Below are positions 3,401 through 52,937 of a stretch of DNA of 64,000 nt, piece by piece (position 1 is the first letter of the stretch; every line of letters begins with the position of its first letter). The stretch is taken from the NCBI GenBank assembly GCA_050273025.1, contig CP158635.1, forward strand, positions 3,596,001-3,660,000, written 5' to 3'. The notes under the pieces are model-generated. The model was given only the letters and a program-made list of their open reading frames with translations. It made no database searches and had not been told where the DNA came from. A program made the position numbers and the translations under genes. This stretch comes from Cenococcum geophilum. Taxonomy: Eukaryota.

Positions 3401-3645
3401 AGATAGATATAAAAACCTCCCCTACTAGTTAAAGTGGATAGTAAGAACGAGTACTTTGTTAAAAGAATTAATAATATTAAGTATAATAAACGGAAACGCT
3501 AATATATATATCTTATAAAATGGAGAGGCTTTACTAAGTCCTTATAGGAACCTATTAACTTTATAGGACTTATATAAGCCGCAGAAGACTTTTACGAACT
3601 CCACCTAGAACTACTACAGCCCTATCTCGCAGAAGCTCGAGTTTA
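500..3645 (+). pseudogene. pol: pol (RT-RNaseH-integrase-chromodomain) of element A with many RIP stops
   Basis: Domain motifs in Gypsy order in one frame, interrupted by TAA/TAG at Gln/Trp/Arg positions. Start is approximate. Confidence 0.9.
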
Positions 3646-4507: not shown

Positions 4508-5325
4508 TTAAATACTAGCAACAGTAACAAGAGCCTCCCCTTCCATCTTAATGTTATTATTAATAGTATTATCGGCTCCTCTATCCCTAGAAGCATTAGC
4601 ACTTCCACTAATATTTTTCTTAGAACGATAGGTACTGGAAGAATTAGCACGGGTAGAAGACTGGCAAGGAGAACATTTATCTAGACTTTTGTTACTATCC
4701 TTAGTATCCCTAAGCTCTAAATTAGCATCTAAGCAGGGATCCAAAAGCCGTTAACTAAGAGAATAAGTATAGTCCCTAAATGTGTTACTAGAGAAACTTA
4801 CCTAGCTAGGGTAGCCCGCGTAAGAGTACGAATGTTATTATTAATAAGGGTAAGCTGTTCGCATATACGTTCCTAGATACTATATATCCAAGATTATTAC
4901 GTCTCTATAATAGTAAAAACCCTTATAGAATTAAAGAGTCTGCAAGTAAGGGAAGACACCTTCTATCCCCGCCTGTTACTATTAAAATATTGGCGGAAAT
5001 CTTAAATGGCGCGTTAGAGCCTATAAGTCTTATATATATAGATAGCGGGGATCTAGCATAATTAGCGAAATTTAGAATAAGATAGAATGGGAAATACTAG
5101 GACGCAGGTCTTTCTCCTACTGCAGCAATAGGAGCACTTAGATTTATTTTCGCTAGAGTAAGGTATCTTATAGACGTAGGAAGGATCCTACGTAAGAGTA
5201 TAAATGTAGCGATAATAGTATTTTAGGGAAACTGCTGTAGGAGTAATAGACGCTGTCTAGGGCGTCACTAGGAGAGGAATAATACTACTGCCGGTCTAGG
5301 GACGCGCAAAAGGACTATAAGCTAT
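4508..5325 (-). pseudogene. Antisense spliced gene in element B: Cys6 zinc-cluster-like motif, helical region, Ser/Asp-rich tail
   Basis: Reads KYYYRYIYTLT*DPSYVYKIPYSSENKSKCSYCCSRRKTCVL, then intron 5097-5053 (GTATTT..GCTAAT..TAG) and intron 4801-4755 (GTAAGT..TAG, 47 nt). Removing the second intron joins the frame to the 4508..4744 ORF. Confidence 0.65.
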
Positions 5326-29724: not shown

Positions 29725-32700
29725 TATTACAGACGCTTTAAGTACAATATTACAACTATTAGGAGAGGAGTTAGAAGCAGCTAGTTAGTTAATTAAGGTA
29801 TAGTCTAAAATAGAGCTAATAGAACTATATAATAAGGAATAGTAACTAAGGTTATATAATAAGCTATATATTAAACGAGAGGAATAGAAGGAACTTACGT
29901 ACCTTATATATAAGGAGGATTTCTTAGAAGTACGGTTGTGTATTTAAAGAACTATAGTCCCTACTTAGATAGTTCTTCTCTTTGTAGTAAATCTTAGAAT
30001 ATAATTAGAGTTAATCTATTAGGCAACCACTCTACTAATTATTATTACGTTATTAACTTCTTGTTTACCTATATACTTAGCCTATTAATAAGTCTACTAT
30101 AGTTCTTACTATAAGGCTTTGTTATATATTTACTATTAAGGTTATAGTATTAATAAAGTTAAATAACATACCACTAAAAGTAGTAGCTATAACGACGTCT
30201 ATAGTGGCAACTATATTAGTATAGTAGATACTAACTTATAACTAGTTACTATTAAATAGCTATAGGAAATAGTTAATTAATTAATAAATAATAATAAAAT
30301 ATTTAAAGAAAGGATTAATAGAATTGGAGTAGCTAAGGTTAAGTTACCCTTAATTAAAAGATTCTTAGGGGAGAAATTAAAACTTAAGGGATTCCTTATA
30401 TAAATACACTTTAAGGTTATATAACAAGGAGTAAAGTTAAAAACGCTTATAGATTAAATTACTTACGCAGGATTATTCTTAACGGGAAGGGTACTTAAGT
30501 AGTTTAAGCTTTACCTTATAGAGGTATAGAAGTATAGTATATGTTCTTAAGCTAAAATAGGTTTATAGAATAATTAATATAAATATTTAAAGACCTAGAG
30601 GTAACTATAATAGTAAAAAAAAAGCTTTAAAACCTAGTATAAAGAACTTTGGTAATTAAATATATAATAGAGTTTTAGATATTAGTAATATAGGTTAAAT
30701 AAAATAATAAGGCACTTATAGTATAGTATAAATAGGGACTAAAGATAAAAAATCTAAGATATAATTATTCTAATAGAAGATGCGGATACTTTTAGGGATT
30801 TAATTAATTAAGTAATTAAGATTAATAATAGAATCTACTAAAGAGAGCAGACTAAGAAGGGTTAGGATAGAGTTTTATAGTTATATAAGGCGTAGGGTAT
30901 ATAATAATAAAGTTAAAGTTAAAAACTATAGTATAGCGTAGAGCTAATAGACCTAAGTAATATTAAATAAAATAAGAAATAAAATAAACGACTATAGAAA
31001 TCTAGAGGATAAGAATTAAGTAATTAAAGGTTTAAGAAGTAAAGGCTAAACTAGGGGTCTTAGTAGTAGAAGATGTTTAGGTAAACTCTATAGTAAGAAA
31101 AATAGTTTAAAGAAGGAGCTTATATAAATTATAGAAAATAGAGTTACTATATTAAAGACTATAGAAGTAAGTAGAGTTACTATATAGTAAAAGAAATAAG
31201 ACTAGTAGAAGATATATATATATAGAGGGATAATAGTATACTGCAAGGAATAAAAGAATATTTAATTAAAAGTTTTACATTTTATTATAATAATATATAC
31301 TAAATTTATAAAAAATATTAAGTATAATATAAGCTATTAGCTATAGGAGCTAAAATTATTAAAGTTTAGAGAAACTAATAAACTAGTTTGTAAATTGGGT
31401 ATTAAGGATAATAAATTTAATATAGGCAAAATATTTAATAATAATAAGGTAATAAAAGTAGCTTGCTAAAAGTATATAGACCTCTAAAATATTATAAAAG
31501 AGGTAGAAAATAATTCTACTATAAAATAGGGAATATTAATAGGGATTAAAACCCCACTAGATATAATATCTATTGCTTTATAAAACGTAAGAGAAGTAGG
31601 ACAGTAAACTACTTTAGCACTTAATAAAGGTAAAAGGCTAAAGGCTTAAGATTCTTAAAAAGAGATAAAAGATAATTAAAACTTCTAAGACGGGATAAGA
31701 TAAGCTTAAGGACCTATAATAGATAATAACCGATAGAGTAAAGTAATGGCTTAGTTTAGTAATATATAAATAAGCTTAGGATAAAGTTTCCTAAAGATAT
31801 AAGATTCTTAAGACAAGATAAGTAAGATTTAAAACTCTTAAAATAAGATAAAAACACTATAGAAGCCTAGTTAAAATAAGGCTAAAGCTAAGCTTAAGAA
31901 AGAAGTAAGCTTAGGATTAAGAATCCTATAGGACTAAGATTTTAGTAATAGAATAAGGACTATTAAGGTAATTATAAGCAAGGCTTAGTAATAGAATAAA
32001 ATGTTAATACTATAATTAAGAAGTAAGAAGACTTTAAGGATCTACTTATAAGACGTAAACTAAAAGAAACTAGAAAGGAATTTAGGTAAAGAATTCTCAC
32101 TTAGTAAGAATAAAAGCTAGATTAAAAAACTAGTATATTAGGTTATATAAGGAATAAAGCACCTATATAAAGAATTACTAATAGGCTAAGAATAGGTATA
32201 CTAAGAGCTAAATAGCTTATTAAACTGAAAGATAAAGAGGATCTAGGAATCCCTATTAGGTTTAAAAAATAATATATAAAAGGCTATTATAATATAGCAA
32301 TAAGAAAATACTTCCTTATAGATAAGCCGTATATACTTTAGTAGCTATACTAAAAGTAGTATAAATAAAGGCATAATAATAAGTAGGAAGATTTTTATAT
32401 ATAGTTAGATAAGAAAGTTATCTAAGACTACCCTATTATAGAAAAGGCAATAAGTTATATTAAAGGGGCCTTAATTATAATATTAAAGGATCTAAAGAAA
32501 TAATTAGAGGACTAGAGAAGTAAGAGGTATATCTTAGTACCTATAAATAAAGTTATAATATTTAGATTAATATAGTAAAGGTTTAAACTTAAAAATAAAA
32601 ATAAGTTAAAAGTTAACCTAAAGCACCTAGCGTATTATATATTGGTATAGATTGTATATATAAATAATATATATAAAATATATAAGAATTTAAAAGAAAA

Positions 32701-34078
32701 GAATTAGAAGTACCTTATAAGGATATATTAGGCGCTAAATAAGTAATAGTATAAAAATGCTAAGTATATATATAAATAGCATTTAATAGAAGTTTAGAAG
32801 TTAGGAGACTTAATACTTTAACAAAAAAAATTTTTTATAGAAGAATACTTAGATAAATAATAGTAGTAGGAATACCTAGAGAATATATATCTATAGTATA
32901 TTAAGGATAAAAAGTAAACTAGGTATTAACTAAAGAGTAAGCTAAGTATAATAGGATTAAGTAGCTAATAGTTAGGAAAAGTAGAGGCCTATAGGACTAA
33001 AGGGAGCTAATAGTAAAGTCTTAGACCCTTAAAGGAATTTAAGGACAATACCTAAATTTATAAGTTAATTAGTAAGATTAGTAGTTTAAAGCACTAATAG
33101 ATAGTAGAGTAATAAAAAACTATATTTTACTAGTAGTAGTTAAGAAAATAGGATTACCTTATAGATAGAAGGAATAATCTTACCTATTAGTTATAATTTT
33201 AGGAGATCTAATAGCCTATAGAGGAGGTATTATTAACCTTAAAATAGAACCTATTTAAATAACTATTAAAGAGAGATAAATTAAGATATCTTTTAATATC
33301 CTACTATTAGGACGGGATAAGGTAGTATTAGAAATGCCTTAGTTATAGAAATATAATCTAAGGATTAATTAGATTATAGGTTAAGTTAATATTAAAAATA
33401 CCTAATAATACAAAATATAATAATAAACTAAGTTAGTATAGTACTAAGTTAAAGTAATATATAAAGAGACTAAGCGAAGCTTAAGTTACGTACTAAAGAG
33501 ATACTATAAGTATAGTAAGAAACTATAGAGCCTAGAAAGTAAAAATATAACGGAACCTTATAGTAAGAACTACGATGGGCTCGTTAATAGGCTAGGTGTA
33601 TAGGAAATGCAAGTACAAAAGTCAATAACGTAATAATAACTAGTGGAGTGGTTGCCTAACAGATTAACTCTAATTATATTCTAAGAATTACTATAAGGAA
33701 GGAACTATCTAGGTAGGGACTAAGGGTCCTTAAATACACAACCGTACTCCTATAAAATCCTTCTTATATATAATATACGTCTTATATATAAGGTATATAA
33801 GTTCCTCTTATTCCTCTTATTTAATATATAGCATATTATATAACCTTAGCTACCATTCCTTATTATATAGTTCTACCGGTTTTATCCTAGACTATACCTA
33901 AATTAACTAACTAGCTTCTTCTAACTCTTCCCTAAGTAGTTATAATATTATACTTAAAGCGTCCGTAACACTATCTCCCTCCTCTTTATCTTTGTCCTTA
34001 AAGATTCCTAATATCTTTAAGTTGTTTACTAGAGGTGTAATATCCGTCTAATTAATTTGGTTAATATTATTACTTATT

Positions 34079-34763
34079 ATACCTAAAGCAATTTCTTCTT
34101 TATACGTATAACGTTATACTTACACTATTACTACTATATTATCTCTTAGTGAGATTATACTATCTCCGTGTTCTTAATATTTAAAAAAGGGGTTAGTTTA
34201 TATTGCGTTAGTAAACCCGTCTTTATAATAACCGTCTTCTTACTTAGAGTGCACTAAAGCAAATATTTGTTTATCCTATAACGTTCGCTCTACCTCTAAT
34301 ACTAAATATACGTGACCTATTACTCTTAATAGTTGTCTAGTTCTCTAATTAATTTGTTTTAGGGTTTTATATTTAATCTACTGCTACGCGGCTAGATAGT
34401 AAACTGTCTTAAGCCCTTACTAAGTTAGAACGTTCTTAGGACGCGGAACAAAAGGCCCTAAATACTCGCATCGCGGCATCTACTTATTTACTCCATCTTA
34501 AGAAGGTTTATAAAAAGGTTTATTTTAAGGAGTAGAAACTTATAGAATAAGGTTTATAGAAACTTAGTAATAAAAGAATAGATTCTCTTCCAATAGAGAA
34601 GGAAATAGATCTAAGTAGTTCGGCAACTACTCTTCTTAGGTCCCCCTTAGGTGACTTATTCTTTAGTAATCCTTCTTTATTAATACTACCTAACCTAATT
34701 TCTTCTAATACTCCTATACCTTTCCTATAGCATTCTTTAAATTTTCTAGTAGTTCCTAGGTAG
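34079..34763 (+). pseudogene. Antisense spliced gene in D2: Zn2Cys6-like motif plus coiled-coil-like region
   Basis: EIILSPCS*YLKKGLVYIALVNPSL**PSSYLECTKANICLSYNVRS gives C-x2-C-x6-C-x13-C-x2-C-x8-C when RIP Tyr codons are reverted to Cys. 55-nt intron at 34308-34362 (ATACGT from GTACGT..CTAAT..TAG). One-base frameshift near 34505. Confidence 0.7.
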
Positions 34764-37700
34764 TCTTAGTGTAGCCTATCTACTTAACCTTATACTATAT
34801 TTTATTGTTAATGTCCTTATAACTAACGATCTTTAAAACTTACTATTCGTCTTCTTCCTATCCTCTATACGTGTCTGCCTTATAGACTAGTAGCTTAACA
34901 TTTCTATATACTAGCTTTAGTATTGCAATATACTGTATAGAATAGATCTTTATCTTAGCTAGTAAACTTAATTTAAATATAACCGGTAAAATCCTTTATA
35001 TAATTTTAAAAGGTCCTAGTCTAACGTAGTTTAACTTCTTACTTAGTTATTAACTCTTAAAATTTTTATATAGTAGCTATACCTTATCTCGCTCCTTAAG
35101 ATCTAGTCCCTTAGATCTCTTAGCATTATAGTACCTTTTTATTCTCTCTTATACTTTCTTTACTAATTCTATAAGGTCTATATAAAGATTTATTAATGCC
35201 TTTATTCTTTCTTTAGCTGTGCTACTCGTTTTCTTTACTTACTATAATAATAACGATATTCTTAGCTTATATCTATAATTTACCTTAAATGGTAATATGC
35301 CTATACCTTCCTATAGCGTTGCATTATATACAAACTATATAACTAGTAATAATAATACCCAATTATTCTATGCATAATTAATATAATGCCTTAAATACTG
35401 CTCTAGTGTCTAATTTAGTCTTTCTATTTAACCGTCTGTCTGCAGATAATATATAGTAGAAGTTACTACTTAAACTCCTTACTCCACTAAGAACACTTCC
35501 TAAAATACTACTATAAGTCTTAGATCTCTATCTAATATAATCTTACTTAGTGCTCTATATCTTATAAACACTTCTTTAATATAGATTTTAGCGACATCTT
35601 CTACTAATATTTCTTCTATACATACTATAAAGTATCCCCACTTTATAAGCTTGTCTACTATTACTAAGATTACATTATAATCTTATCCAGTAATAGGATC
35701 TCTTAACTTTAGTAACTTAATAATAAAGTCCTATAATATAACCTCCTATAGTCTCTCTAGTATTTTAATAGGTTATAGCCCTCCATATAGCTTATACCTT
35801 ATTAGTTTATTCCTTTAGCAATCTAAATATTCCCTTATAACTTTTCGCGCTAAGCCCTAGATTCTATTAATAATATACTCCTCTTAAAGTCTTTACACTA
35901 AGCCCGTAGCTCCGTTATATCCTTAAGTTAGTCCCTTATAGAAGTCCTCTATAAACTACTCTGCTATACTTCTTAGGATATACTTTACTTCTTAGTTTTT
36001 GTATATATCCATCTATAGATCTTCTAGCTATACTTCTAGAATTCTTTATACCTAAAAGCTTTCTAGTATCTTATAAACTCTTTCTAGTTCGTTACTCTCT
36101 TAAGTTGCTATAATTTTTAGATAATTATACCTAATCAATCCGTCTATATCCTTTCGTAGTAAAGCCCCTAATAGCTTCTTATTATTTTATAGTTTAGCCT
36201 TTTAACTTAGAGCATCTACTTATATGTTATCTATACCCTTAGTATACTAAATCTTAAAATAGTATTTTATAAGTATCTCTGCCCATCTAACCTATCTTTA
36301 GTTAAGTTCCTTTATTATTAGGAATCCTATTAGGTTCTTATAATCTATCTTAATTATAAATAGTTTCTCTATGCCTTATAAAAATACTCTCTATTTCTTT
36401 AATACTATAATTATACCTAATAACTCCTTATTATAGATGTTATAGTTTAACTCTAGTAGTGTTATTTTCCAACTATAGTATACCACTAGGTGCCATCTAT
36501 TTTAATATTTCTATATAAAGCACGCCCCTAGTATAAAGTCTAATATATCTGTCTTTATAACCGTCTCTAGTCCTAGTTAATAAATCTTAAGAACTAGCTT
36601 CTAGGTAAATAGCTCCTTAACTTTCTTAAATAATTTCCGCTGTTCCTCTCCCTATGCCTATAGTTCTTCTTTCTTTATTAATCGCGTAAATAGCTTAATA
36701 TTCTTTAACTATTGCGCTATAAACCTTCTATAGTAATTACAAAACCCTAAAAATAATCTTAACTATATAACGTTCTCTAGTTCTTACCAATTTACTATAC
36801 CCTTAATCTTCTTTAGATCTATACTAAGTTGGCCTAGTTTAATAATAAATCTAATAAAATCGGTCTTCCTAGTAAAGAACTTGCATTTCTTAATTACTAC
36901 TAGCATCTATTCTTTTTATAGTCTCTTTAAGACCCATTTAACGTATTCCCCGTATTCTTCCTTACTTATTAAGTAGATAATAATAATATTAAGGTATACT
37001 ATAACAAATTCATCTAAGTGTTCTCCTAATATATTATTAATACGCTTTTAAAACGTTACTAGTATATTTATAAGCCCGAATTATATAACTAATAGTTTAT
37101 ATAGTCCTTCCTTTAACCTAAAGGCTGCCTTTTATTTGTTACCTTTCTTAATCCTAATCTAATAGTACGCCTATCTCAGATCTATCTTCGTAAAGATTTG
37201 CGCATTACCTATCCTATCTTAAATTTCGCTAATTAAGGGTAAAGGATACCTATCCTTCCTAGTAATGCTATTTAACTGTCTATAGTCAATATATAATCTT
37301 AGTTTACTATTTTTTTTTAGTATAAACAGTACTAGATAACCCGCTAATAACTATAATAGTCTAATATATCCCTTTTATAAGTTTTCCTAAATAAACTCTT
37401 TTAATACTCTACCTTCTTCTTCGGTAAGCTTATAGATTAGAAAGAACCTTAGACTTATTCCTAGTTTTAATTCTATTTTATAGTCCTATGCTATATATTC
37501 TAACAGCTTTTTACTTTCCGGTAAGTATAGTTTCTTACTATACTTATGGTATCTCTTTAGTACGTAACTTAAGCCTTACTTAATCTCTTTATATATCGCT
37601 CTAACTTAGTACTATACTAACTTAGCCTGTTATTATATCTTGCGGCGTTAAGTATCTCTATTATTAACCTAACCTATAATCCAATTAATCTTTAGATTAT

Positions 37701-39349
37701 ATTTCTATAACTAAGGCATTCCTAATACTGCCTTATCCCGTCCTAACGGTAGGATATTAAAAGATATCTTAATTCGTCTTCCTTTAATGGTTATCTAAAT
37801 AGGTCCTATTTTAAGGTTAATAATCCCTCCTCTATAGGCTATAAGATCTCCTAAAATTATAACTAATAGGTAAGATTGTTCCTTCTATCTATAAGGTAAT
37901 CCCATTCTCTTAACTGCTATTAGTAAGATATAATTTCGCATTACTCTACTATCTATTAGCGCTTTAAACTGCTAATCTTACCATTTAACTCATAAATTTA
38001 GGTATTGTCCTTAAATTCCTTTAAGGGTCTAAGGCTCTACTACTAGCTCCCTCTAGTCCTATAGGCCTCTACTTTTCCTAACTATTAGCTGCTTAATCCT
38101 ACCGCACTTAGCTTACTCTTTAGCTAATAACTAGTTTGCTTTTTATCTTTAATATACTATAGACATATATTCTTTAGGCATTCCCACTACTATTGTCTAT
38201 CTAAACATTCTTCCATAAGGAATCTTTTTAGTTAAAGTATTAAGTCTTCTAACTCTTAAACTTCTACTAGGTACTAACTATGTATATACTTAGCGTTTCT
38301 ATATTTCGCCTTGTCTAATAACCAATATATCCTTACTAGGTACTTTCGGTTCTTATCTTTTAATGCTTTATATATATTACATATATTATCCATATATATA
38401 ATCTATACCAACGTATAATATACTAGGTATTTTAGGTTAACTCTTAACTCGTCTTTATCTTTAAGTTTAAACCTTTCTTATATTAATCTAAGCGTTGCGA
38501 CTTTATTTGCAGGTACTATAATTTACCTCTTACTTCTCTAGTTCTCTAATTACTCCTCTAGATCTTTTAATATTATAATTAAGGCTCCTTTAATATAACT
38601 TATGGCCTTTTCTATAATTAGGTGGTCTTAGACAACTTTTTTATCTAACTATATATAGAAATCTTCCCACTCGTTGTTATGCCTTTGTCTATACCACTTT
38701 TAGTATAGCCCTTTAAGTATATACGGCTTGTCCGTAAGGAAGTATCTTCTTATTATTGCGTTATAACAGCCCTTTATATGTCGTTCTTTAAACCTAGTAG
38801 AAATTCCTAGATCCTCTTCATTTTCCAGTTCGATAAGCTACTTAGCTCTTAGTATACCTACCTTAGGCCTATTAGTAATCCTTTATACCGGCGCCCTATC
38901 CCTTATACGTCCTAATATACTAGATCTCTTATCTAGTTTCTGTTCTTGCTATACGATAATTCTTTGCCTAAACTCTTCTATGGTTTCTTTTAGTTTGCGT
39001 CTCGCGCTTAGATCCTTAAAGTTTTCTTACCTCTTAATCTTGGTATTAACTTTTTAATCTTTAGGCCGAATACTGCGTTCCCCTAGTAAGTCTTCTGGGC
39101 CTATATACCTGTCTCCTAGTCTAACTGCTATTTATACTACAGATTCTCTAATCTATAACAAAGCCTCTTACCTTTTACTTATAGGTGTCCTAATTTATAC
39201 TCCAAATTCTTAGTCCCTTGGATTCTTTAATCCTAAGCTTGCTTCTAACTTAAGCTTAGCTTCAGCCTTAGTTTAACTAGGCTTACTTAATGTTCTTATC
39301 TTATCTTAAAAGTCTTAAATCTCACTTATCTCGTCTTAAGAGTCTTGTG

Positions 39350-39655
39350 CCTGTGGGAAACTCTATCCCGAGCTTATTCGTATATCTTTAAACTAAGCTA
39401 CTGCTCTGCTCTATTGGTTATCGTCCATTATAGGTCCTTAAGCTTGCCTTATCTCGTCTTAAGAATCTTAGTCGTCTTTTATCTTATCTTAAGAATCTTA
39501 AGCCTGTGGGAAACTCTGTCCCGAGCTTATTCGTATATCTTTAAACTAAGCTACTACTCTGCTCTATTGGTTATTGTCCGTTATAGGTCCTTAAGCTTGC
39601 CTTATCTTGTCTTAAGAATCTTGGTTATCTCTTATCTCATCTTAAGAATCTTAAG
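39350..39655. repeat. 153-bp in-frame tandem duplication inside the gag region of D2
   Basis: CCTGTGGGAAACTC at 39350 and 39503; the region is single-copy in D1, D3 and D4. Confidence 0.9.
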
Positions 39656-42106
39656 CCTTTGGCCTTTTGCCTTTATCGAGTGCCGAAGTAGTTTGCTGTC
39701 CTACTTCTCTTACGTTTCGCAAAGCGATAGATATCGTGTCTAGTAGGGTCTTAATCTCTACTAATATTCCCTATTCTATAGTGGAATTATCCTCTACCTC
39801 TAGTGTAACATCTCTAATAGCTGCATATTCCTAGTAAACCGCCTTTATTACCTTATCGTTACGGAATATTTCGCCTACGTTAAATTTATTATCTTTAATA
39901 TCCGATCTACGAACTAGTTCGTTAGTTCCTTAATATTTTAATAAACTTAGCTCCTATAGCTAATAGCTTGCGCCATACTTAGCGTCCTTATAAATTTAGT
40001 ATGCGTTATTATAATAAAACGCAAAACTTTTAATTAAACACTCCTTTATTCCTCGCAGCATATTATTATTCCTCTATACGTATATATTATCTACTAGTCT
40101 TATCCCTTTTACTATATAGTAACTCTACCTACTTCTATAGTCTCTAATATAATAACCTTATTTTCCGTAATTTATATAAGCTCCCTCTTTAAACTATTTT
40201 TCTTGTTATAGAGTCCGCCTAAACGTCTTCTGCTACTAAGATCCCTAGTTTAGCCTCTACTCCTTAAACCTTTAATCACTTAATCCTTATCCTCTAGGTT
40301 TTTATAGTCGTTTACTCTATCTCTTATAGGCTTCTTTAGTACCGCTTAGGTCCATTAGCTCTGCGCTATACTATAGTTTCTAACTTAGCTTTAGTTATTA
40401 TATACTCTACGCCTTATATAACTATAGAACTCTATCTTAGCCTCTCTTAGCCTATTCCCTTTAGTAGATCTAATTATTAATCTTAATCGCTTAATCTATT
40501 AGTTCCCTTAGGGTGTTTATATCTTCTATTAGGATAATTACGTCCTAGACTTTAGCCTTAAGTCCTTACTTATACTGTGCCATAAGCGCCTTATTATTCC
40601 ACTCTACTTATATTGCCAGCGTCTGGAACTACGTTATATACTTAATTGCTAAGGTTTATTACGTAATATTTTAGAGTTTTCTTTTCGCTATGGTTACTGC
40701 CTCTAGGTCTCTAAATATTTATATAAGTTATTCCGCGAATCCTTCCTAGCTTAAGAATATAAACCGCACCTCTTAATTAGTGGTTATTATTCCGTTTACT
40801 TATATCTCCATAAGGTAAGGCTTAAACTATTTAAGTGCCTTCCCCGATAGGAATAGTCCTACATACGCTATTCGATCCATAGGTATTAGTAGCTTAGCTC
40901 CTTCTTGCGTAACCTTAAAGTATATCTATATAAGGAATCCCTTAAGCTTTAATCTTTCTCCTAAGTACCTTTCAATTAATAGTAGCTTAATCTTTACTGC
41001 TCTTATCCTATTAACCCTTTCTTCTAACGCTACATTATTAGTTATTAACTAGTTAACTATCTCCTATAGTTATCCAACCGTTACAGGTTGCTATAAGTTA
41101 GTGTCTGCTATACTAGTATTGTTACCTAACCTTAAAGTAGTTGCCGCCGTTAATGGCGTTATAGTAGCTGCTTTTAGTGGCATGTTATTTAACTTTCTAT
41201 ATTAATACCGTAACTAGGTAGTAATTGTATAACGGAACCTTATAGCAAGAACTACAATAGGCTTGTTAATGGGCTAGGTATATAGGAAATGTAAGTATAA
41301 AAGTTAATAACGTAATAATAACTGGTAGAGTGGTTGCCTAATAGATTAACTCTAATTGTATTCTAAGAATTACTACAAGGAAGGAACTATCTAGGTAGGG
41401 ACTAAGGGTCCTTAAATACACAACCGTACTCCTATAAAATCCTTTTTATATATAATATACGTCTTATACATAAGGTACGTAAGTTCCTCTTGTTTCTCTC
41501 GTTTAATACATAGCATATTATATAACCTCGGCTACTATTTCTCGTCACATAGTTCTACCGGTTCCATTTTAGACCGTGCCTAAATTAACCAACTAGCTTC
41601 TTCCAACTCTTCCCCAAGTAGTTATAACATTGTACTTAAAGCGTCCGTAACAAAAAAGTTAGTAAATTATATAGTATAGAACTATAAGATAGAGTTAGAA
41701 CTAAAAATAAGTTTAAGGTTCTTTTTAATTTATAAGCTTTACTTAAGAGGAGTTTAGAGTACTTAAAGAGTTTATTTAAAAAAACTTATAAAAGGGATAT
41801 ATTAGACTATTATAGTTATTAGTGGGATATCTAGTATTATTTGTACTAAAGAAGAATAGAAAACTTAGGCTATATATTAACTATAAATAGTTAAATAGTA
41901 TTACTTAGAAGGATAGGTATCCTTTACCCTTAATTAGCGAAATTTAGGATTAAATAGGTAATGCGTAAATCTTTATAAAGATAGATCTAAAATAGGCGTA
42001 TTATTAGATTAGAATTAAAAAAGGTAATACATAAAAAGTAGCCTTTAGGTTAAGAAAGGACTATATATACTATTAGTTATATAATTTAGATTAATAAATA
42101 CACTAG

Positions 42107-45100
42107 TATAACGAAGCCGTGTAGAAATACTACGGTAGACTTATTAATAGGCTAGGTATATAAATATAGAATAGTTAACAACGTAAATATAACTGGTAGA
42201 GTAGTTGCCTAATAGATTAACTCTAATTATATTCTAAGATTTACTATAAAGGAGAGAACTATCTAAGTAGGGATTATAGTTTTTTTTAAATATAACTATA
42301 CTCCTAAGAAATCCCCTTTATACGTAAGGTACGTATTATATATATTATATATACATTCCCTTTATACACTATGTATACTACGTATAATATTATATAACCT
42401 TAGCTACTATTCCTTATTATATAGCTCTATTAGCTCTATTCTAGACTATACCTAAATTAACGAACTAGCTTCTTCTAACTTTTCTCTTAGTAGTTATAAT
42501 ATTGTACTTAAAGCGTTCGTAATACTATCTCCCTCCTTTTTATCTTTATCCTTAAAGATTCTAAATATCTCTAAGTTATTTACTAGAGGTGTAATATCCG
42601 TTTAATTAATTTGGTTAATATTATTACTTATTATACCTAAGGCTCCTTCTTCTTTATAAGCGCGACGTCGTGCTTATACTATTACTGCGATATTATCTCT
42701 TAGTGAGATTATACTATCTCCGTATTCTCGCTATTTAAAAAAGGGGTTAGTTTACATTACGTTAACGAACCTATCTTCGTAATAACCGTCTTTTTATATA
42801 AAGTATACTAAAGCGAATATTTATTTATCCTATAACGTTTACTTTATCTCTAATACTAAATATATATAACCTATTGCTCTTAATAGTTGTCTAGTTCCTT
42901 AATTAATTTATCTTAGGGTTTTATATTTAATCTATTACTATATAGCTAGATAGTAAACTATTTTAGGCTCTTGCTAAGCTAGAATGCTCTTATAATATAG
43001 AGTAGAAGGCCCTAAAGGCTTATATTATAGTATCCGCTTAGCTACTCCGTCTTAAAAAGGTCCATTTTAAGAAGTAAAAACTTATAGAATAAGGTTTATA
43101 GGAACTTAGTAATAAAAGAACGGATTTTCTTCTAATAGGGAAGGAAATAGATTTAAGTAGTTTGGCAACTGCTCTTCTTAGGTCCCTCTTAGATAACTTA
43201 TTCTTTAGTAATCCTTTTTTATTAATACTGCCTAACCTAATCTCTTTTAATACTCCTATACCTTTCTTATAGCGTTTTTTAGATTCTTTAGTAGTTTTTA
43301 AGTAGTTTTAGTATAGCCTATCTACTTAACCTTATACTATATTTCGTTATTAATATTCTTATAATTAATGATTTTTAAAACTTACTACTTATCTTCCTTT
43401 TATTCTCTATATATATCTACCTTATAAACCAGTGGCTTAATATTTCCATATACTAGCTCTACTATTACGATATACTATATAGGGTAGATATTTATCTTGG
43501 CTAATAGGTTTAACTTAAACGTAATTAGTGAAATCTTTTATATAATTTTAAAAGGTCCTAGTCTGACGTAGTCTAACTTCTTGCTTAGTTATTAACTTTT
43601 AAAATTTTTATATAGTAGCTATACTTTATCTCCCTCCTTAAGATCTAGTCCCTTAGATCTTTTAGTATTATAGTACTTCTTTATTCTTTTTTATACCTTT
43701 TTTATTAATTTTATAAGGTCTATATAAAGATTTATTAGTATCTTTATCCTTTCTTTAGCTGTACTACTTGTTTTCTTTACTTATTATAGTCACAATAATA
43801 TTTTTGGCTTATATCTATAATTTGCCTTAAATAGTAATATACCTATTCCTTCCTGTGGTGTTACATTATATATAAACTATATAACTAGTAATAGCAATAC
43901 CTAATTATTTTATACGTGATTAATATAATGTCTTAAATACTGTTCTAGTATCTAATTTAATCTTTTTATTTAACCGTCTGTCTGCGGGTAATATACGGTA
44001 GAAGTTACTACTCTAACTCCTTACTCTGCTAAGAATACTTCTTAAAATGCTGCTATAAATCTTAAATCTCTATCCGATATAATCTTATTTAGTACTCTAT
44101 GTCTTATAAACACTTCTTTAATATAGATTTTAGCGATATCTTCTACTAAGATTTTTTCTGTATATGCTATAAAGTAGCCCTACTTAGTTAACTTATCTAC
44201 TATTACTAAGATTACGTTATAATCTTATCTAGTAATAGAATTTCTTAACTTTAGTAACTTAATAATAAAGTCCTATAATATAACCTCCTATAGTCTCTCT
44301 AGTATTTTAATAGGTTATAGCCCTTTATATAGCTTATGCCTTATTAGTTTATTCCTTTAATAATCTAGATACTTTTTTATTACTTTTTTACGATATTTTA
44401 GATTCTGTTAATAATGTATTCTTTTTAAAGTCTTAATACTAAGCCTATTGCTCTATTATGTCCCTAAGTTATTTCCTTATAGAAATCTTTTATAAAATGC
44501 TCTGCTATGCTTTTTAGGATATACTTTGCTTCCTAATTTTTGTATATATCCATCTATAGATCTTTTAGCTATTTTTTTAGAATTCTTTATACCTAAAAGC
44601 TTTTTAGTGTCTTATAGACTTTTTCTAATTTGTTATTCTTTTAAGTTGCTACTAGCTTAGGGTAATTATATCTACTCTATCTATCCTTATCTCTGTATAG
44701 CATTACTCCTAATAGTTTCTTATTATTCTATAGTTTAGCCTTTCTACTAAGTGCGTCTACCCTTATATTCTTAGTTCCTTTAGTATACTAAATTTTAAAA
44801 TAGTATTCTATAAGCATTTCTACCTATTTAACTTATCTTTAATTAAGTTCTTTTGTTATTAGAAACCCCGTTAGGTTCTTGTAATCTATCTTAACTATAA
44901 ATAGTTTCTCTGCACCTTATAAGAATACTCTTTATTCCTTAAATACTGTAACTATACTTAATAACTCCTTATTATAGACATTATAGTTTAACTCTAGTAG
45001 TATTATCTTTCTACTATAATATAATACCGGGTGCTATACATTCTTATACTTTTATAGTAAGTATACTCCTAGTATATAATCTAATATATTTGTCTCTATA

Positions 45101-48100
45101 ACCGTATCTAATCCTAGTTAATAGATTTTAAGGATTAGCTCCTAGGTAAATAGCTCTTTAAGTTCCTTAAATAACTTTCTTTATTTATCTCCCTATGCCT
45201 ATAGTTCCTTTTTCTTTATAAGCCTAGTAAATAGTTTAATGTTCTTTAACTATTGTGTTATAAACCTTCTATAGTAGTTGTAAACCCCTAAGAATAACCT
45301 TAACTATATTATATTCTTTAGTTCTTACTAACTTACTATAGCTTTAATCTTCTTTAGGTCCATATTAATATAACCTAGTTTAATAATAAATCTATTAAAA
45401 TTGGTCTTCCTTATAAAGAACTTGTATTTTTTAATTGCTACTAGTATCTATTCTTTCTATAGTCTCTTTAAGACCTATTTAATATATTCCCTATATTCTT
45501 CCTTAGTTATTAAGTAGATAATAATATTATTAAGGTATACTATAATAAACTTATTAAGGTGTTCTCCTAATACACTATTAATTCGTTTCTAAAATATTAC
45601 TAGTATATTTATTAATCCGAATTATATAACTAATAGTTTATATAGTCCTTTTCTTAATCTAAAGGCTGCCTTTTATTTGTTACCTTTCTTAATTTTAATC
45701 TAATAGTATACCTATCTTAGATCTATCTTTATAAAGATTTATACATTACTTATCCAGTCTTAGATCTTACTAATTAAGGGTAAAAGATACTTATCTTTCT
45801 AAGTAATGCTATTTAACTACCTATAGTTAATATATAATCTAAGTTTTCTATTTTTCTTTAGTATAAATAGTACTGGATAACCTACTAATAACTGTAATAG
45901 TCTAATATATCCCTTTTATAGGTTTTCTTAAATAAACTCTTTAAGTACTTTAAACTCTTCTTTAGTAAGCTTATAGGTTAGGAAGAACCTTAGACTTATT
46001 CTTAGTTCTAACTCTATTTTATAGTTTTATACTATATAATTTGCTAGCTTTTTACTCTTTGGGCTCTATAGTTTCTTATTATACTTATAGTATCTTTTTG
46101 GTATATAACTTAAGCTCCGCTTAGTCTCTTTATATATTACTTTAACTTAGTACTATACTAACTTAGTTTACTATTATATTTTACGGCGTTAAGTATTTTT
46201 AATATTAACTTAACTTGTAATCTAATTAATCCTTAGATTATATTCCTATAACTAAGGTATTTTTAATACTGCCTTATCCCGTCCTAATAGTAGAATATTA
46301 AAAGATATCTTAATTTATTTTCCTTTAATGGTTATTTAAATAGGTCCTGTTTTAAGATTAATAATCCTTCCTTCGTAGGCTATTAGATCTCCTAAAATTA
46401 TAATTAATAGGTAAAGTTGCTCCTTCTGTCTATAAGGTAACCCTATTCTCTTAACTACTACTAATAAGATATGGTTTCGCGTTACTCCACTATTTATTAG
46501 CGCTTTAAACTACTAATTTTGCTATTTAACTTATAAATTTAGGTATTGTCCTTAAATTCCTTTAAGGGTCTAAGGCTCTACTACTAGTTCCCTCTAGTTT
46601 TATAGGCCTTTACTTTTCCTAACTATTAGCTGCTTAATCCTATTACGCTTAGCTTACTTTTCGGCTAATACCTAGTTCGCTTTTTATCCTTAATATACTA
46701 TAAATATATATTCTCTAGGTATTCCCACTACTATTATCCGTCTAAGTATTCTTCTATAAGGAATCTTTTTAGTTAAAGTATTAAGTCTCCTAACTCTTAG
46801 ACTTCTATTAAATGCTATCTATATATATATTTAGCATTCCTATATTATTACTTATCTAGCGCCCAATATATCCTTATAGGGTATTTCCAATTCTTTTCTT
46901 TTAAAATTTTATATATTTTGTATATATCGTCTATATATATAATCTAAGATAGCGTATAGTATGCTAGGTGCTTTAGGTTAACTCTTAACTTATCTTTATT
47001 TTTAAGTTTAAACCTCTATTATACTAATCTAAATATTATAACTTTATTTATAAGTACTAAGATGCGTCTTTTACTCCTCTAGTCCTCTAATTATTTCTCT
47101 AGATCCTTTAATATTATAATTAAGGCTCCTTTAATATAAGTTATGGCCTTCTCTATAATTAGGTGGTCCTAAATAACTTATTTATCTAACTATATATAGA
47201 AATCTTTCTACTTATTATTATATTGTTGTCTATACCACTTTTAGTATAGCTACTAGAGTGTATATAGCCTGTCTGTAAGAAAGTATCTCCTTATTACTAC
47301 GTTATAATAGCCCTTTATATATTATTCTTTAAACCTAATAGGGATCCCTAGATCCTCTTCGTTTTTTTAGTTTAATAAGCTACTTAGCTCTTAGTATGCC
47401 TACTCTAAGCCTATTAGTAATTCTTTATATAGGTGCTCTGTCCCTTATACGTCTTAATATACTAGATCTCTTATCTAGTTTCTATTCTTACTATACGATA
47501 ATTCTTTACCTAAATTCTTTTATAGTTTCTTTTGGTTTGCGTCTTATAAATAAATCTTTAAAGTTCTCTTACTTCTTAATCGTGGTATTAACTTTTTAAT
47601 CCTTTTACTAAGCCCTACTCGTAATTTCTTTAATAGTCTTTATTCTATTGCTAAAATTTTAGTCCTATAAGATTCTTAATCCTAAGCTTACTTCTATCTT
47701 AAGCTTAGCTCTAGCCTTAGTTTAATTAGGCTTTACTAGTGTTCTTATTTCTTCTTAAGAGTCTTAAATCTTACTTATCTTATTTTAAGAATCTTATATC
47801 TTTAGAAAACTTCGTCCTAAGCTTATTCGTATATTGCTAAACTAAGCCGTTGCTCTACTCTATTAGTTATCGTCCATTATAGGTCCTTAAGCTTACCTCA
47901 TCTTATCTTAAGAATCTTAGTTATCTTTTATCTCTTTTTAAGAATCTTAAGCCTTTAGCCTTTTGCCTTTATTAAGTGCTAAAGTAGTTTACTATTTTAC
48001 TTCTCTTACGTCTTATAAAGCGATAGACATTATATCTAGTAGGGTTTTAATCCCTACTAATGTTTCCTATTTTATAGTGGAATTATCTTTTACCTCTTAT

Positions 48101-49932
48101 ATAATATCTCTAAGGTCTATATACTTCTAGTAAGCTGCCCTTATTACCTTATCGTTATAGAATATTTTACCTATATTAAACTTATTATCCTTAATATCTA
48201 ATCTATAAACTGGTTTATTAGTTCCTCTAAACTCTAATAATTTTAGCTCCTATAGCTAGTAGCTTATATTATACTTAGCATCTTTATAAATTTAGTATAT
48301 GTTATTATAACAAAACGTAAAACTTTTAATTAAATATTCTTTTATTCCTTATAGTATATTATTATCCCTCTATATATATATATTATCTACTAGTTTTATT
48401 CCTTTTACTATATAGTAGCTCTGCCCACTCTTATAGTCTTTAATATAATAACCCTATTTTCCGTAATTTATATAAGCTCCTTCTTTAAACTATTTTTTCT
48501 ATTATAGAGTCCGCCTAAACGTCTTCTGCTACTAAGATCCCTAGTTTAACCTTTGCTCCTTAGACCTTTAATTACTTAATCCTTATCCTCTAGGTTTCTA
48601 TAATTTCTTATTTTATTTCTTAGATTTTTTGGTACTACTTAGGTTTATTAGCTTTCCGCCATACCATAGTTTCTAATTTAGCTTTAGTCGTTGCGTACTT
48701 TACGCCTTATATAACTATAGAACTCTATCCTAACCTCTCTTAGCCTGTTCCCTTTAGTAGATCTAATTATTAATCTTAATTGCTTAATTTATTAGTTCCC
48801 GTAGGGTTTCCGCATCTTCTATTAGGATAATCGCGTCCTAGACCTTAGCCTTAAGTCCTTACTTATACTGTGCCATAAGCGCCTTATTATTCTACTTAAC
48901 TTACGTTGCTAACGTCTAGAACTGCGTTATATACTTAATTACTAAGGTTTATTACATAATATCTTAGAGTTTTCTTTTAGCTATAGTTACTGCCTTCAGG
49001 TCCCTAAATATTTATATAAGTTGCTCTGTAAACCCTTCCTAGCTTATAAATATAAACCGTACTTCTTAATTAGTGGTTATTATTTTATTTACTTATATTT
49101 CCATAAGGTAAGGCTTAAACTACTTAAGTGCTCTTCCTAATAGGAATAGTCCCGCATATACTATTCGATCTATAAGTATTAGCAGCTTCGCTCCCTCTTG
49201 CGTAACCTTAAAATACATTTATATAAGGAATCCTTTAAGTTTTAATCTTTCCTTTAAGTACCTTTTAATTAATAGTAACTTGATCTTTACTGCTCCTATC
49301 CCATTAATTCTATTTTCTAGCGTTATATTGTTTTCTGTTAGCTAGTTAACTATTTCTTATAGTTGTCCGACCGTTACAGGTTGCTATAAGTTAGTATTGG
49401 CTATGCTAGTGTTATTTCCTAACCCCGAAGTAGTTGCCGCCGTCAATAGCGTTATAGTGGCTGCTTTTGGTGGCATGTTGTTTAACTTCTTTTACTATAA
49501 CCTTAGTAGTAAATGTGTAACAAAGCTGTGTAGGAATACTACGGTAGACTTGTTAATGGGCTAGGTATATAGGTATAAAATAGTTAACAATGTAAATATA
49601 ATTAGTGGAGTGGTTGCCTAACAGATTAACTTTAATTATATTCTGAGATTTACTACAAAGGAAAGAACTATCTAGGTAGGGACTGTGGTCCTTTTAAATA
49701 CAACCATACTCCTAAGAAATCCCCTTTATACGTGAGGTACGTGTTGTACGTATTATACATACATTCCCTTTATACACTGCGTACACTGCGTATAACATTA
49801 TATGACCTTAGTTACTATTCCTCGTTATATAGCTCTATTGGCTCCATTTTAGACTATGCCTGGATTAACCAACTAGCTTCTTTTAACTCCTCTCCTAGTA
49901 GTCGTAATATTGTACTTAAAGCGTTCGTAACA
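42107..49932 (-). mobile_element. Full-length Gypsy/chromovirus D3 (7826 bp)
   Basis: LTRs at 42107-42524 and 49516-49932; TSD ACTAG at 42102-42106 and 49933-49937; inserted in the RT of D4. Confidence 0.95.
42633..43305 (+). pseudogene. Antisense Zn2Cys6-like spliced gene, D3 copy
   Basis: Colinear with 34079-34763, reading (M)PKAPSSL*ARRRAYTITAILSLSEIILSPYSRYLKKGLVY, with the same intron position. Confidence 0.65.
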
Positions 49933-52269
49933 ACTAGTAATGTTTTAGAAAAGAATTAATAGTATATTAGGAGAATACCTTAATAAGTTTATTATGGTAT
50001 ACCTTAATAATATTATTATCTACTTAATAACTAAGAAAGAATACAGGGAATACGTTAAATAGGTCTTAAAGAGACTATAAGAAAAATAAATACTAGTAGT
50101 AATTAAGAAATGCAAGTTCTTTATAAAGAAGACTAATTTTATTAGATTTATTATTAAATTAAGTTATATTAATATAGACCTAAAGAAAATTAAAGCTATA
50201 GTAAGTTAGTAAGAACTAAAGAATATAATATAATTAAGGTTATTTTTAGGGTTTTATAACTATTATAGAAGGTTTATAATATAATAGTTAAAGAATATTA
50301 AACCGTTTACTAAACTTATAAAGAAAAAGGAACTATAGGTATAGGGAGATAAATTAAAAAAGTTATTTAAGGAACTTAAAGAGTTATTTACCTAGGAACT
50401 AATTCTTAAGATTTACTAACTAGAACTAGACATGGTTATAAAAATAAATATATTAGACTTTATACTAGGAATATACTTATAATAAAAGTATAGGAATATA
50501 TAGCATCTAATAGTATACTATAGTTGGAGGATAATACTACTAAAGTTAAACTATAACGTCTATAATAAGGAGTTATTAGGTATAGTTATAGTATTTAAAA
50601 AATAAAAAGCATTCTTATAAGGCGTAGAAAAACTATTTATAGTTAAGATAAATTATAAGAACTTAATAGGGTTTCTAATAATAAAAAAACTTAATTATAG
50701 ATAAGTTAAATAGGTAGAGATGCTTATAGAATACTATTTTAAGATTTAGTATATTAAAGGAACTAAGAATATAAGAGTAAATATACTTACTAGAAAAGCT
50801 AAACTATGGAATAATAAGAAACTATTAGGAGTAATACTATACAGAGATAAGGATAAATAGATTAGATATAACTACCCTAAACTAATAATAACTTAAGAGG
50901 ATAATAAACTAAAAAGAGTCTATAAGATACTAGAAAGCTTTTAGGTATAAAGAATTCTAAAAGTATAACTAGAAGATTTATAGATAGATATATATATAAA
51001 TTAAGAAGTAAAGTATATCCTAAAGAGTATAGCAGAGCATTTTATAGAAGATTTCTATAAGGGAATAACTTAAGGACATAATGGAGCAATAGGCTTAGTA
51101 TTAAGACTTTAGAAAGTTTTTTTTATTTTTTTTATATCTATTATATTAGAAAGAATATATTATTAATAGAATTTAAAATATTATAAGAAAAGTAATAAAA
51201 GAATATCTAAATTGTTAAAGGAATAAACTAATAAGGTATAAGCTATATAGAGGGCTATAACCTATTAAAATACTAAAGAGACTATAGGAGGTTATATTAT
51301 AGGACTTTATTATTAAGTTACTAAAGTTAAAAGATCCCTATTACCGGATAAGAGTATAATATAATCCTTATAATAGTAAATAAGTTAACTAAATAGGGCT
51401 ACTTTATAGTATATATAGAAGAAATCTTAGCGAAGGATATTACTAGAATCTATATTAAAGAAGTGTTTATAAGATATAGAGTACTAAGTAAGATTATATT
51501 AGATAGAGATTTAAGATTTATAGTAGTATTTTAGGAGGTATTCTTAGCGGAATAAGGAGTTAGAGTAGTAACTTTTACTATATATTATCCGCAGACGGAC
51601 GGATAAATAAAAAGATTAAATTAGATACTAGAATAGTATCTAAGATATTATATTAATTATATATAAAATAATTGGGTATTATTATTACTAGTTATATAGT
51701 TTATATATAATATAATACTATAAAAAGGAATAAGTATATTACTATTTAAGGCAAATTATAGATATAAGTTAAGAATATTATTATTACTATAATAAGTAAA
51801 GAAAATAAGTAGTATAGCTAAAGAAAGAATAAAGACGTTAATAAATCTTTATATAGACCTTATAGAATTAGTAAAAAAGGTATAAAAAAGAATAAAATGG
51901 TATTATAACGCTAAGAGATCTAAAGGACTAAATCTTAAGAAAGGGGATAAAGTATAGCTACTATATAAAAACTTTAAAAGTTAATAACTAAGTAAGAAGT
52001 TAAACTATATTAAACTAAGACCTTTTAAAATTATATAGAGGATTTTACTAGTTATATTTAAATTAAACCTACTAGCTAAAATAAAGATCTACCCTATATA
52101 GTATATTACGATACTAAAGCTAGTATATAAAAATATTAAACTACTAATTTATAAAGCAGACACGTATAAAGAATAAAAAGAAGATAAATAGTAAGTTTTA
52201 AAGATTATTAGTTATAAGGACATTAACAATAAAATATAGTATAAAGTTAAGTAAATAGGCTATAATAAG

Positions 52270-52937
52270 ACTACTTAGGAGCTATTAAAAAATCTAAAGA
52301 ATGCTATAGAAAAGGTATAGGAGTATTAGAAGAGATTAGATTAGGTAATATTAATAAAGAAAAATTACTAAAAAATAAGCCACCTAAGGGGGACCTAAGA
52401 AAAGTAGTTACCGAACTACTTAAATCTATTTCCTTCTTAGTTAAAGAAAAATCTGTTTTTTTATTACTAAGTTTCTATAAACTTTATTCTATAAGTTTCT
52501 ACTCCTTAAAATAGACCTTATTATAACTCTTTTTAAGACGGAGTAACTAAGTGGATGCTATAATATAGGTATTTAAGGCTTTCTACTTTATGTTATAGAA
52601 ATGTTCTAACTTAGTAAGGGCTTAAGATAACTTATTATTAAGATAAGTAGTAGTAGATTAAATATAAGACCCTAAAATTAATTAATTAAGGGATTACATA
52701 ACTATTAAAAGTAATAAAGTGTATATATTTAGTATTAAAAGTAAAGTAAATATTTACTTTAGTGCACTTTAAGTAAGAGGACAGTTATTGCGAAGATAGA
52801 CTTAATAATGTAATATAAATTAACCCCTCTTTCGCATAATAAGAATATAAAGATAGTATAATTTTACTAAGCAATAATATTATAGCAACGGTATAAGTAT
52901 AATGTTAGGCGTATAAAAAAGAAGAAGCTTTAGGTAT
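52270..52937 (-). pseudogene. Antisense Zn2Cys6-like spliced gene, D4 copy
   Basis: Reverse-complement homologue of 34079-34763; SSYLKCTK retained; in frame through LLRLKKSYNKVYFKE*KL. Confidence 0.6.

Follow-up and report, generated by a model that had tools for sequence, protein, structure and literature searches.

The question raised by this locus is whether a reading frame that runs opposite to the gag-pol of a degraded retrotransposon is what remains of a genuine gene and, if it is, what kind of protein that gene encoded. The locus lies in a 64,000-nucleotide stretch of Cenococcum geophilum DNA (contig CP158635.1, positions 3,596,001 to 3,660,000 of the forward strand), hereafter called the window, which consists of AT-rich fungal repeats degraded by repeat-induced point mutation (RIP), with a guanine-plus-cytosine (GC) content of 0.21 to 0.38 per 2 kb and no gene-like frame among its reading frames of 90 codons or more. 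Self-comparison of the window identified a Ty3/Gypsy retrotransposon, here element D, in three copies, namely, D2, D3, and the outer copy D4. An earlier note on the same DNA had described in each of them an antisense, spliced frame encoding a Zn2Cys6-like protein of the Gal4 type. According to our analysis, these frames derive almost certainly from a real and conserved gene that is specific to the element, and the explanation that we consider likely is that they are copies, killed by RIP, of an accessory gene conserved in one lineage of ascomycete Ty3/Gypsy chromoviruses, the product of which may serve as a regulator.

The two-exon antisense frame is present in all three RIP-degraded copies of element D, as seen both in their translations and in the alignment of their DNA, and its parts are listed below (positions are those of the window; E values are those of the profile matches).

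34079..34307, plus strand: exon 1 relic of D2, with the start codon as ATA, the basic stretch, and the six-Cys motif (E value of 2.4e-24)
34308..34362, plus strand: intron of D2, 55 nt, phase 1, with donor ATACGT, branch-like CTAAT, and acceptor TAG
34363..34730, plus strand: exon 2 relic of D2, with the long-helix region and the conserved tail LPNLISSNTPIPFL (E value of 1.4e-32)
42633..42861, plus strand: exon 1 relic of D3 (E value of 2.1e-19)
42862..42916, plus strand: intron of D3, 55 nt, with donor ATATAT and acceptor TAG
42917..43272, plus strand: exon 2 relic of D3, with a 12-nt deletion relative to D2 (E value of 5.3e-19)
52727..52937, minus strand: exon 1 relic of D4, with an 18-nt deletion (E value of 5.7e-14)
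52672..52726, minus strand: intron of D4, 55 nt
52304..52671, minus strand: exon 2 relic of D4 (E value of 1.3e-24)

The first codon reads ATA, the RIP product of ATG, in D2, D3, and D4 alike, and the donor dinucleotide is AT in D2 and D3, as RIP turns GT; the ATG start and the GT donor themselves are found in the relatives described below and in none of the three window copies. The intron of D2 runs from ATACGT to TTTTAG, and reversing RIP (TG>TA) restores GTACGT as its donor. At the phase-1 junction of D2, a Trp codon is split between exon 1 (T, 34307) and exon 2 (GG, 34363-34364), in agreement with the DAEW|S junction of intron-less homologues. The antisense start is separated from the LTR edge at 33970 by 109 nt, which include the polypurine tract (the distance from the boundary of the 3' long terminal repeat [LTR] had been put at about 110 bp), and the end of the gene overlaps the chromodomain tail by about 30 nt. 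As the earlier note had remarked, only Cys1 and Cys5 survive, both of them in D2 and Cys5 also in D4, with Tyr at the other positions. Partial reversal of RIP among the three copies was too ambiguous to recover the Cys codons, which were settled by homologues from outside the window; profiles made only from such homologues match all three copies with E values of 6e-14 to 1e-32, far beyond chance. Four stops occur in the 76 codons of exon 1 of D2 and six internal stops in the 121 codons of its exon 2, and because every copy has several stops, the antisense gene of the window copies cannot be expressed as a protein; these copies are dead.

Relatives of the gene were found first of all at the protein level. 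A HMMER profile of the three exon 2 translations of the window, with stops given as X, was compared with 1.84 billion representative proteins and matched 43 of them at an E value of ≤1e-3 and 9 at ≤1e-10, the best being P0001 (2.2e-25); all the matches are short, and none carries a usable name. A word-index search among longer proteins with the RIP-damaged exon 1 alignment scored none. Two further searches gave proteins with an intact N terminus, P0046 and P0047, which read IMPSCSRCA(K/E)(E/K)(G/K)LVC(V/I)AIAAP.GRQPSSC.ECT(R/K).NMRS.C(D/N)VRSVSDAEWSRV. Their Cys residues are spaced as C-x2-C-x6-C-x13-C-x2-C-x8-C, which is identical to the spacing that had been reconstructed from the damaged window copies. 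The C-terminal end of P0047, a protein of 239 residues, is NTPVPFP, and other matches end in TPIPFL. Since the homologues end in this way, the true stop of D2 is the TAG at 34728-34730, after PFL; the end formerly assigned to the frame, at 34763, lies 33 nt too far. The overlap with the chromodomain tail that was claimed along with it is correct.

At the DNA level, metagenome contigs were scanned for REKVRSKE, which matched 267 stretches, and 75 loci were found to encode a relative, with 69 of the 75 coming from one record set. The antisense proteins of these loci are 33 to 67% identical to P0047 according to tblastn. Most of the loci are RIP-like, with a GC content of 0.30 to 0.41, and four (L001, L002, L003, and L008), with a GC content of 0.45 to 0.48, are free of RIP. 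L002, L003, and L008 are 7.5-kb contigs, each holding one whole chromovirus with gag, zinc knuckle, protease, reverse transcriptase (RT), RNase H, integrase, SH3, and chromodomain (Chromo at 3e-8), and in each of them gag-pol lies opposite the antisense match. The ends of L003 overlap exactly over 127 nt, and L008 carries exon 1 at one contig end and exon 2 at the other, so that both are assemblies in which one element, with a single LTR, is circularly permuted. Counted over the 75 loci and the window, 98 copies have exon 1 and 92 have exon 2. The earlier note had proposed to score how often relatives lie antisense to the end of pol: an integrase/chromodomain match occurs on the opposite strand in 91 of the 92 exon 2 copies, the exception being in L025, and the end of this match ranges from 43 nt inside the antisense stop to 20 nt past it (median, 31 nt inside).

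The layout of the gene in intact elements can be described from these relatives. It runs opposite to gag-pol, with its ATG 109 nt inside the edge of the 3' LTR, a single 55-nt phase-1 intron, and its stop within the chromodomain, about 30 nt short of that domain's end; the stop follows directly after the last residue in 89 of 89 copies. The polypurine tract and LTR edge are the same as those of D2, GAAGAGGAGGGGGATGG followed by TGTTACGGA. The product, of approximately 205 to 215 residues, comprises a basic stretch (RRAR), the six-Cys module, a charged helix of about 100 residues, and a conserved tail, LP(D/N)L.SS(D/N)TP(I/V)PF. The gene is thus opposite to gag-pol and placed between pol and the 3' LTR, like the genes of the brtn or aORF-3R type discussed below; it is kept in most copies of the family and is conserved like the other proteins of the element.

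The intron, for which a length of 55 nt had been given from the window copies, measures exactly 55 nt in all 74 copies whose flanking codons could both be placed. Its donor is GT in 25 of the 74 and AT in 49, the latter as expected from RIP, and its acceptor is AG in 72 copies and AA in 2. All four copies free of RIP have a GT donor (GTACGC in L002, GTGCGC in L003, GTACGT in L001, and GTGCGT in L008). The L001 intron (L001:1173-1236) is 64 nt long, i.e., 55 plus 9, and L001 was left out of the 74-copy count, and a length of 55 nt is obtained for L008 on the condition that the two ends of its contig share three bases. The intron lengths known so far, 55 and 64 nt, differ by a multiple of three. 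Four proteins, P0046, P0047, P0001, and P0019, read DAEW|S across the junction and lack the intron; P0048 to P0052, P0044, and P0012 are read-throughs of unspliced DNA. All genomic copies retain the intron, and none of the 75 loci is identical to the intron-less proteins. If genes were called without splicing, a product that reads across the junction points to an intron-less contig, which would most simply be assembled RNA, and the four proteins therefore suggest the existence of spliced transcripts. A further intron-less protein, P0053, reads DAECTFHVRSAAARLD across the junction rather than DAEW-SRVQS and is one residue longer; it could stem from alternative splicing or from a different kind of copy.

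In the six-Cys module, Cys2 to Cys6 are encoded by TGY or TAY, that is, by a Cys codon or by that of its RIP product Tyr, in 98 of 98 copies, so that the ancestral codons were those of Cys, as the earlier note had supposed, and all six Cys are kept in 10 copies. Cys1 is Cys or Tyr in 68 of the 98 and Leu or Pro in the other 30, which we think reflect a one-residue indel (SPC versus SC) in an ungapped stretch of the alignment. When 12 members were scanned at an E value of ≤0.1, nine matched Zn_clus (PF00172) and four matched DUF3716 (PF12511), none of them at a Pfam cut-off. The best Zn_clus score is 17.5 bits against a cut-off of 21, the best E value for this family is 0.0045, and in most members the first Cys triad is aligned to the second half of the profile; the best DUF3716 match has 20.1 bits against a cut-off of 22 (E value of 6e-4), covering positions 3 to 59 of the 59 in the profile. 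In the ESM Atlas, the name given automatically to the nearest cluster is "Zn(2)-C6 fungal-type domain-containing protein" (score of 0.92), and for the N-terminal part, the first cluster that bears any Pfam domain has DUF3716 on 28% of its members (score of 0.76); both are leads only. The textbook consensus of the Zn2Cys6 domain is C-x2-C-x6-C-x5-12-C-x2-C-x6-8-C, with a basic run between Cys2 and Cys3. The 13-residue loop of the module is one residue beyond this 5-to-12 range and within the range of 5 to 16 quoted in the earlier note. The module is a conserved six-Cys domain that probably binds zinc and that resembles both Zn_clus and DUF3716 while it can be filed in neither; its true membership in the Zn2Cys6 family we hold to be doubtful.

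Behind the module, the AlphaFold2 (AF2) model predicts one long helix at residues 98 to 199, with a predicted local distance difference test (pLDDT) score mostly above 94, which is very rich in charged residues; within the module, AF2 places short helices right behind Cys1 and Cys4. The amphipathic, possibly coiled-coil stretch that had been proposed at this place is borne out as a long and confidently predicted helix, but a crude heptad test does not rise above shuffled sequences, and because of this, dimerization is unsupported.

Whether this conservation belongs to the antisense strand has to be asked because, in intact relatives, the pol frame is open for 280 to 300 codons past the chromodomain, running through the antisense gene and the polypurine tract, which reads EDEDEEEGDG in this frame, and then on into the LTR for about 40 codons. 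The open pol tail was located as follows.

L003:32-870, minus strand: open pol tail of L003
L002:3787-4690, minus strand: open pol tail of L002
33853-34780, minus strand: corresponding tail in the window

In exon 1, the antisense and pol frames have their third positions in common, and the phase changes in exon 2, where antisense positions 3 and 2 fall on pol positions 2 and 3, respectively. When the four copies free of RIP were aligned with MAFFT without regard to frame, the fractions of exon 2 columns that vary were 0.39, 0.42, and 0.72 at antisense positions 1, 2, and 3, respectively, or 0.25, 0.29, and 0.59 without L001, in which a single-base frameshift in exon 2 disrupts the frames of both strands. 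The transversion diversity, used since RIP makes no transversions, is 0.142, 0.139, and 0.224 at the same three positions of exon 2 (92 copies) and 0.070, 0.055, and 0.151 at those of exon 1 (98 copies), in an alignment that was anchored on the antisense protein and somewhat favors the antisense frame. Nei-Gojobori estimates of dN/dS for exon 2 (three pairs) are 0.23 to 0.31 in the antisense frame and 0.95 to 1.29 in the pol frame; for exon 1 (six pairs), they are 0.06 to 0.18 and 0.18 to 0.50, respectively. Purifying selection thus acts on the antisense frame, and the pol tail is unconstrained at the amino acid level. Because the opposite pol frame is open, part of the conservation, most of all that of exon 1 and of roughly the last 10 codons, is common to the pol strand. 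When the antisense exons were reshuffled synonymously, the pol tail stayed open in 59 to 68% of trials for exon 1 and in 1.8 to 5.4% for exon 2, and a stop-free pol tail is odd given the dN/dS of about 1 in the exon 2 stretch. None of the three outcomes that the earlier note had named as fatal to its reading was found in the relatives: the antisense frame is under purifying selection (dN/dS of 0.06 to 0.31 over both exons), the ancestral codons are those of Cys, and the donor is GT in all four copies free of RIP.

The openness of the pol strand lends itself to the opposite view, in which no antisense gene exists and the frame mirrors a C-terminal extension of pol that is conserved; the length of the open frame in L002 and L003 and the rarity with which it survives reshuffling of exon 2 both agree with it. 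However, exon 2 is most variable at pol codon position 2, its dN/dS is close to 1 in the pol frame and far below 1 in the antisense frame, and a mirror image leaves the fixed-length intron bounded by GT...AG, the invariant stop (89/89), the split Trp codon, and the intron-less products unexplained. We therefore rejected this reading on the codon position and dN/dS tests, and we regard it as scarcely credible. It could also be imagined that a fragment of a host gene was captured once and has been carried along without any use to the element, a thought encouraged by the possible existence of host genes related to the Cys module, namely those for DUF3716 proteins. Against this, the same position, intron, and stop recur across elements whose antisense proteins are 33 to 67% identical to P0047, and purifying selection is seen between elements at a dS of 0.6 to above 2, which makes a useless passenger very improbable. 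The explanation by a conserved accessory gene of the element, relics of which are seen in the window, is the one that we favor, and several observations weigh against it. The dN/dS values rest on four DNA copies free of RIP, one of which (L001) is frameshifted, and in intact elements, the pol frame is open across the whole gene as well. The RNA origin of the intron-less proteins is inferred, and the junction DAECTFHV of P0053 is unexplained by the splice model. As for the product, the Cys module reaches no curated family cut-off; a profile search of PDB sequences returned chance-level C2H2 repeats and Ppr1 at an E value of 5.7, with no meaningful zinc cluster match; AF2 models the module with low confidence (pLDDT of 48 to 73 in the full-length model, averaging 56 in the domain-only model, and 41 to 73 over the models taken together); a Foldseek comparison of the domain-only model with the PDB gave no match at an E value of ≤0.001; and the score observed in the heptad test was reached by 93, 85, and 121 of 300 shuffles.

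In the mechanism that we propose, the antisense transcript would start in or beside the 3' LTR and then be spliced, the product would bind zinc through its six Cys, and the protein would act as a nucleic acid-binding regulator that serves the element, for instance, in the control of LTR transcription or of host silencing. The chances that the product is more precisely a DNA-binding regulator seem to us evenly balanced. The identity proposed in the earlier note, a true Gal4-type Zn2Cys6 transcription factor that dimerizes through a coiled coil and binds CGG-type sites, is suggested by the Cys spacing of the intact homologues, by the weak Zn_clus matches of 9 of the 12 members, by the name of the nearest ESM Atlas cluster, and by the short helices behind Cys1 and Cys4 with the long helix behind the module. 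We nevertheless consider it somewhat unlikely, since the best Zn_clus score stays below the cut-off with the first triad on the second half of the profile in most members, the 13-residue loop falls outside the textbook range, the residues between Cys2 and Cys3 (AKEGLV) lack the usual basic run of the consensus, Ppr1 is reached only at an E value of 5.7, the heptad test is not significant, and DUF3716 scores higher on the best members, with its whole profile covered. A different possibility, to which we give a rather low chance, is that the Cys module is zinc binding while the protein itself makes no contact with DNA, acting instead through RNA or other proteins as an RNA chaperone, a partner of the integrase or chromodomain, or a blocker of silencing. 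The failure to reach any DNA-binding family, a charge-rich helix whose heptad score is not above that of shuffles, and the physical interlocking of the gene with the chromodomain end are in line with such a role, but nothing found here favors binding to RNA or protein, and the sole functional lead for the nearest Pfam family is double-stranded DNA. The earlier note gave the start of the gene, its intron, and the spacing of its Cys residues correctly; its designation of the product as Zn2Cys6-like holds in the sense of a resemblance but not of membership, given the Zn_clus scores below the cut-off, the Ppr1 match, and the poor domain models. The Gal4-type identity and the coiled coil are not established.

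Turning to the elements in which the relics lie, the copies of element D and the parts of D2 that surround the antisense gene are placed as follows.

33546-41652: D2, with gag-pol on the minus strand (self-comparison)
about 42107-49932: D3 (self-comparison)
30335-33545, 41653-42108, and 49933-53157: pieces of D4, the outer copy in reverse orientation, split by the nested D2 and D3
33538..33970, minus strand: 3' LTR of D2, with its minus-strand edge TGTTACGG ending at 33970 (self-BLAST)
33971..33990, minus strand: polypurine tract of D2, altered by RIP, within the 109 nt that separate the LTR and the antisense start
33853..38127, minus strand: pol of D2, degraded by RIP, with protease, RT, RNase H, integrase, SH3, chromodomain, and an extension past the chromodomain (Pfam, tblastn)

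D4 is accordingly no independent neighbor but the outer element that holds D2 and D3 within it. The two LTR copies of D2 were found by self-BLAST at 33538-33970 and 41214-41652. Pfam detects RT (4.3e-14) and RNase H (2.4e-17) on the minus strand of D2, and residues 2 to 1421 of the L003 pol align with D2 at 57% identity (tblastn). Element D is a Ty3/Gypsy chromovirus because D2 aligns with the whole pol of its relative L003, which has a chromodomain. The last 290 or so codons of the D2 pol lie opposite the antisense gene. Within the D2 gag region, at 39295-39662, about 153 bp are duplicated in tandem (88% identity), which repeats approximately 51 residues.

A second, dissimilar Gypsy pol, 30% identical to that of L003, is located at 701-3559 on the plus strand, and a frame on the opposite strand about 1.5 kb farther on, at 5089-5142 (minus strand), reads KCSYCCSRRKTCV; this may be the element called B in the earlier note, which had ascribed the same antisense architecture to it. 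That claim was not confirmed: the profiles of outside homologues found no second family in the six-frame translation of the window, and the one marginal match, at 5089-5142 on the minus strand (independent E value of 0.73), is without Pfam support. A regular expression search of the window for a second six-Cys/Tyr motif returned, besides D2, only a site at 55432 on the minus strand with an unlike motif, and Pfam assigned no family to the exon 1 relics of the window.

For the window itself, the finding is an ordinary one: the three copies are dead and lie among nested elements degraded by RIP. Its wider interest lies in the fact that the extra genes of LTR retrotransposons are poorly understood and that this gene offers a clean case, with a fixed gene model, purifying selection that can be separated by strand, probable spliced transcripts, and a small Cys module that lends itself to expression and testing. 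Should the protein regulate the element or the host, it would bear on the mutual control of fungal genomes and their retrotransposons.

The layout of the gene has precedents. For brtn, the antisense extra gene of the Boty-like elements, the source cited is reportedly Zhao et al. 2011, Virology 417:248. As far as the accounts in PMC8365987, PMC7264820, PMC4227169, and PMC5987419 go, brtn is an antisense extra gene carried by Boty-like elements, Boty being that of the grey mould, and, like the gene described here, it sits in a fungal chromovirus with pol on one side of it and the 3' LTR on the other. Going by these accounts, the antisense layout is already published as brtn, and the gene of element D is a further example of that kind; the statement in the earlier note that the module is not known to have been functionally characterized has to be read with this in mind, the layout itself being in print. 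The likeness to brtn concerns the layout, and no named Botrytis or Sclerotinia protein was among the matches of our protein profile searches. Besides brtn, our searches of the literature brought up nothing on a zinc cluster antisense gene in fungal retrotransposons. A Monilinia transcript listed in PMC5987419 matches both "truncated Pol" and BRTN, which, to the extent of that entry, fits an overlap with the end of pol like that of the element D gene. In plants, antisense open reading frames (ORFs) between pol and the 3' LTR of Ty3/Gypsy elements, termed aORF-3R, are described for Grande1, RIRE2, Retand, and PvRetro13 in the relevant part of PMC7264820, according to which most copies of a family carry them, their conservation is like that of other element proteins, and they have no known function. 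On that description, they have the same position and orientation as the element D gene but belong to plant and mostly nonchromovirus lineages, and the likeness again concerns the layout; the element D gene differs from them in overlapping the chromodomain end and an open pol frame.

With regard to the protein, the best members cover the 59-position profile of DUF3716 over the Cys module, and this fungal Pfam domain is also transposon-borne in another fungus: in the portion of PMC8232023 that deals with it, it is found in two genes, REP9-1 and REP9-2, that belong to REP9, a class II transposon of Zymoseptoria tritici. The similarity has its limits, however, as the best score, 20.1 bits, is less than 22, only 4 of the 12 members reach an E value of ≤0.1, and REP9 is a DNA transposon. 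A Fusarium graminearum protein with DUF3716, PSC58, is called the orthologue of Neurospora NCU05718 in a passage of PMC10776026, and recombinant NCU05718 is stated in the abstract-level account of PMC4650311 to bind double-stranded TTAGGG repeats directly while having no annotated DNA-binding domain; by analogy, this chain may be taken as an indirect lead to DNA binding. With the Gal4-type domain (PF00172), the module has in common the six Cys in a 2-6-n-2-n arrangement, a proline shortly before Cys4, and the long helix behind, and it departs from that domain in its score below the cut-off, its 13-residue loop, the few basic residues between Cys2 and Cys3, and the want of support from PDB sequences or models.

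The last system to be compared is HBZ of human T-cell leukemia virus type 1, an antisense, spliced basic leucine zipper regulator expressed from the 3' LTR of a vertebrate retrovirus and likewise endowed with a long helix. It bears no sequence relation to the fungal gene but might serve as a working model for it. Pursued to its end, the analogy leads to a bold reading that we consider unlikely, in which the gene of element D would be the fungal counterpart of a retroviral antisense regulator, spliced, driven by the LTR, and encoding a zinc-dependent DNA-binding protein, with the gene lying wholly within the open pol tail and its module belonging with DUF3716. If this were true, the pol tail on the other strand would perhaps be translated as well, and an accessory gene of a retrotransposon would be linked to the REP9 genes, which belong to a DNA transposon, and to a telomere repeat-binding protein of the host through a transposon-borne DNA-binding domain that has been exchanged repeatedly between fungi and their mobile elements.

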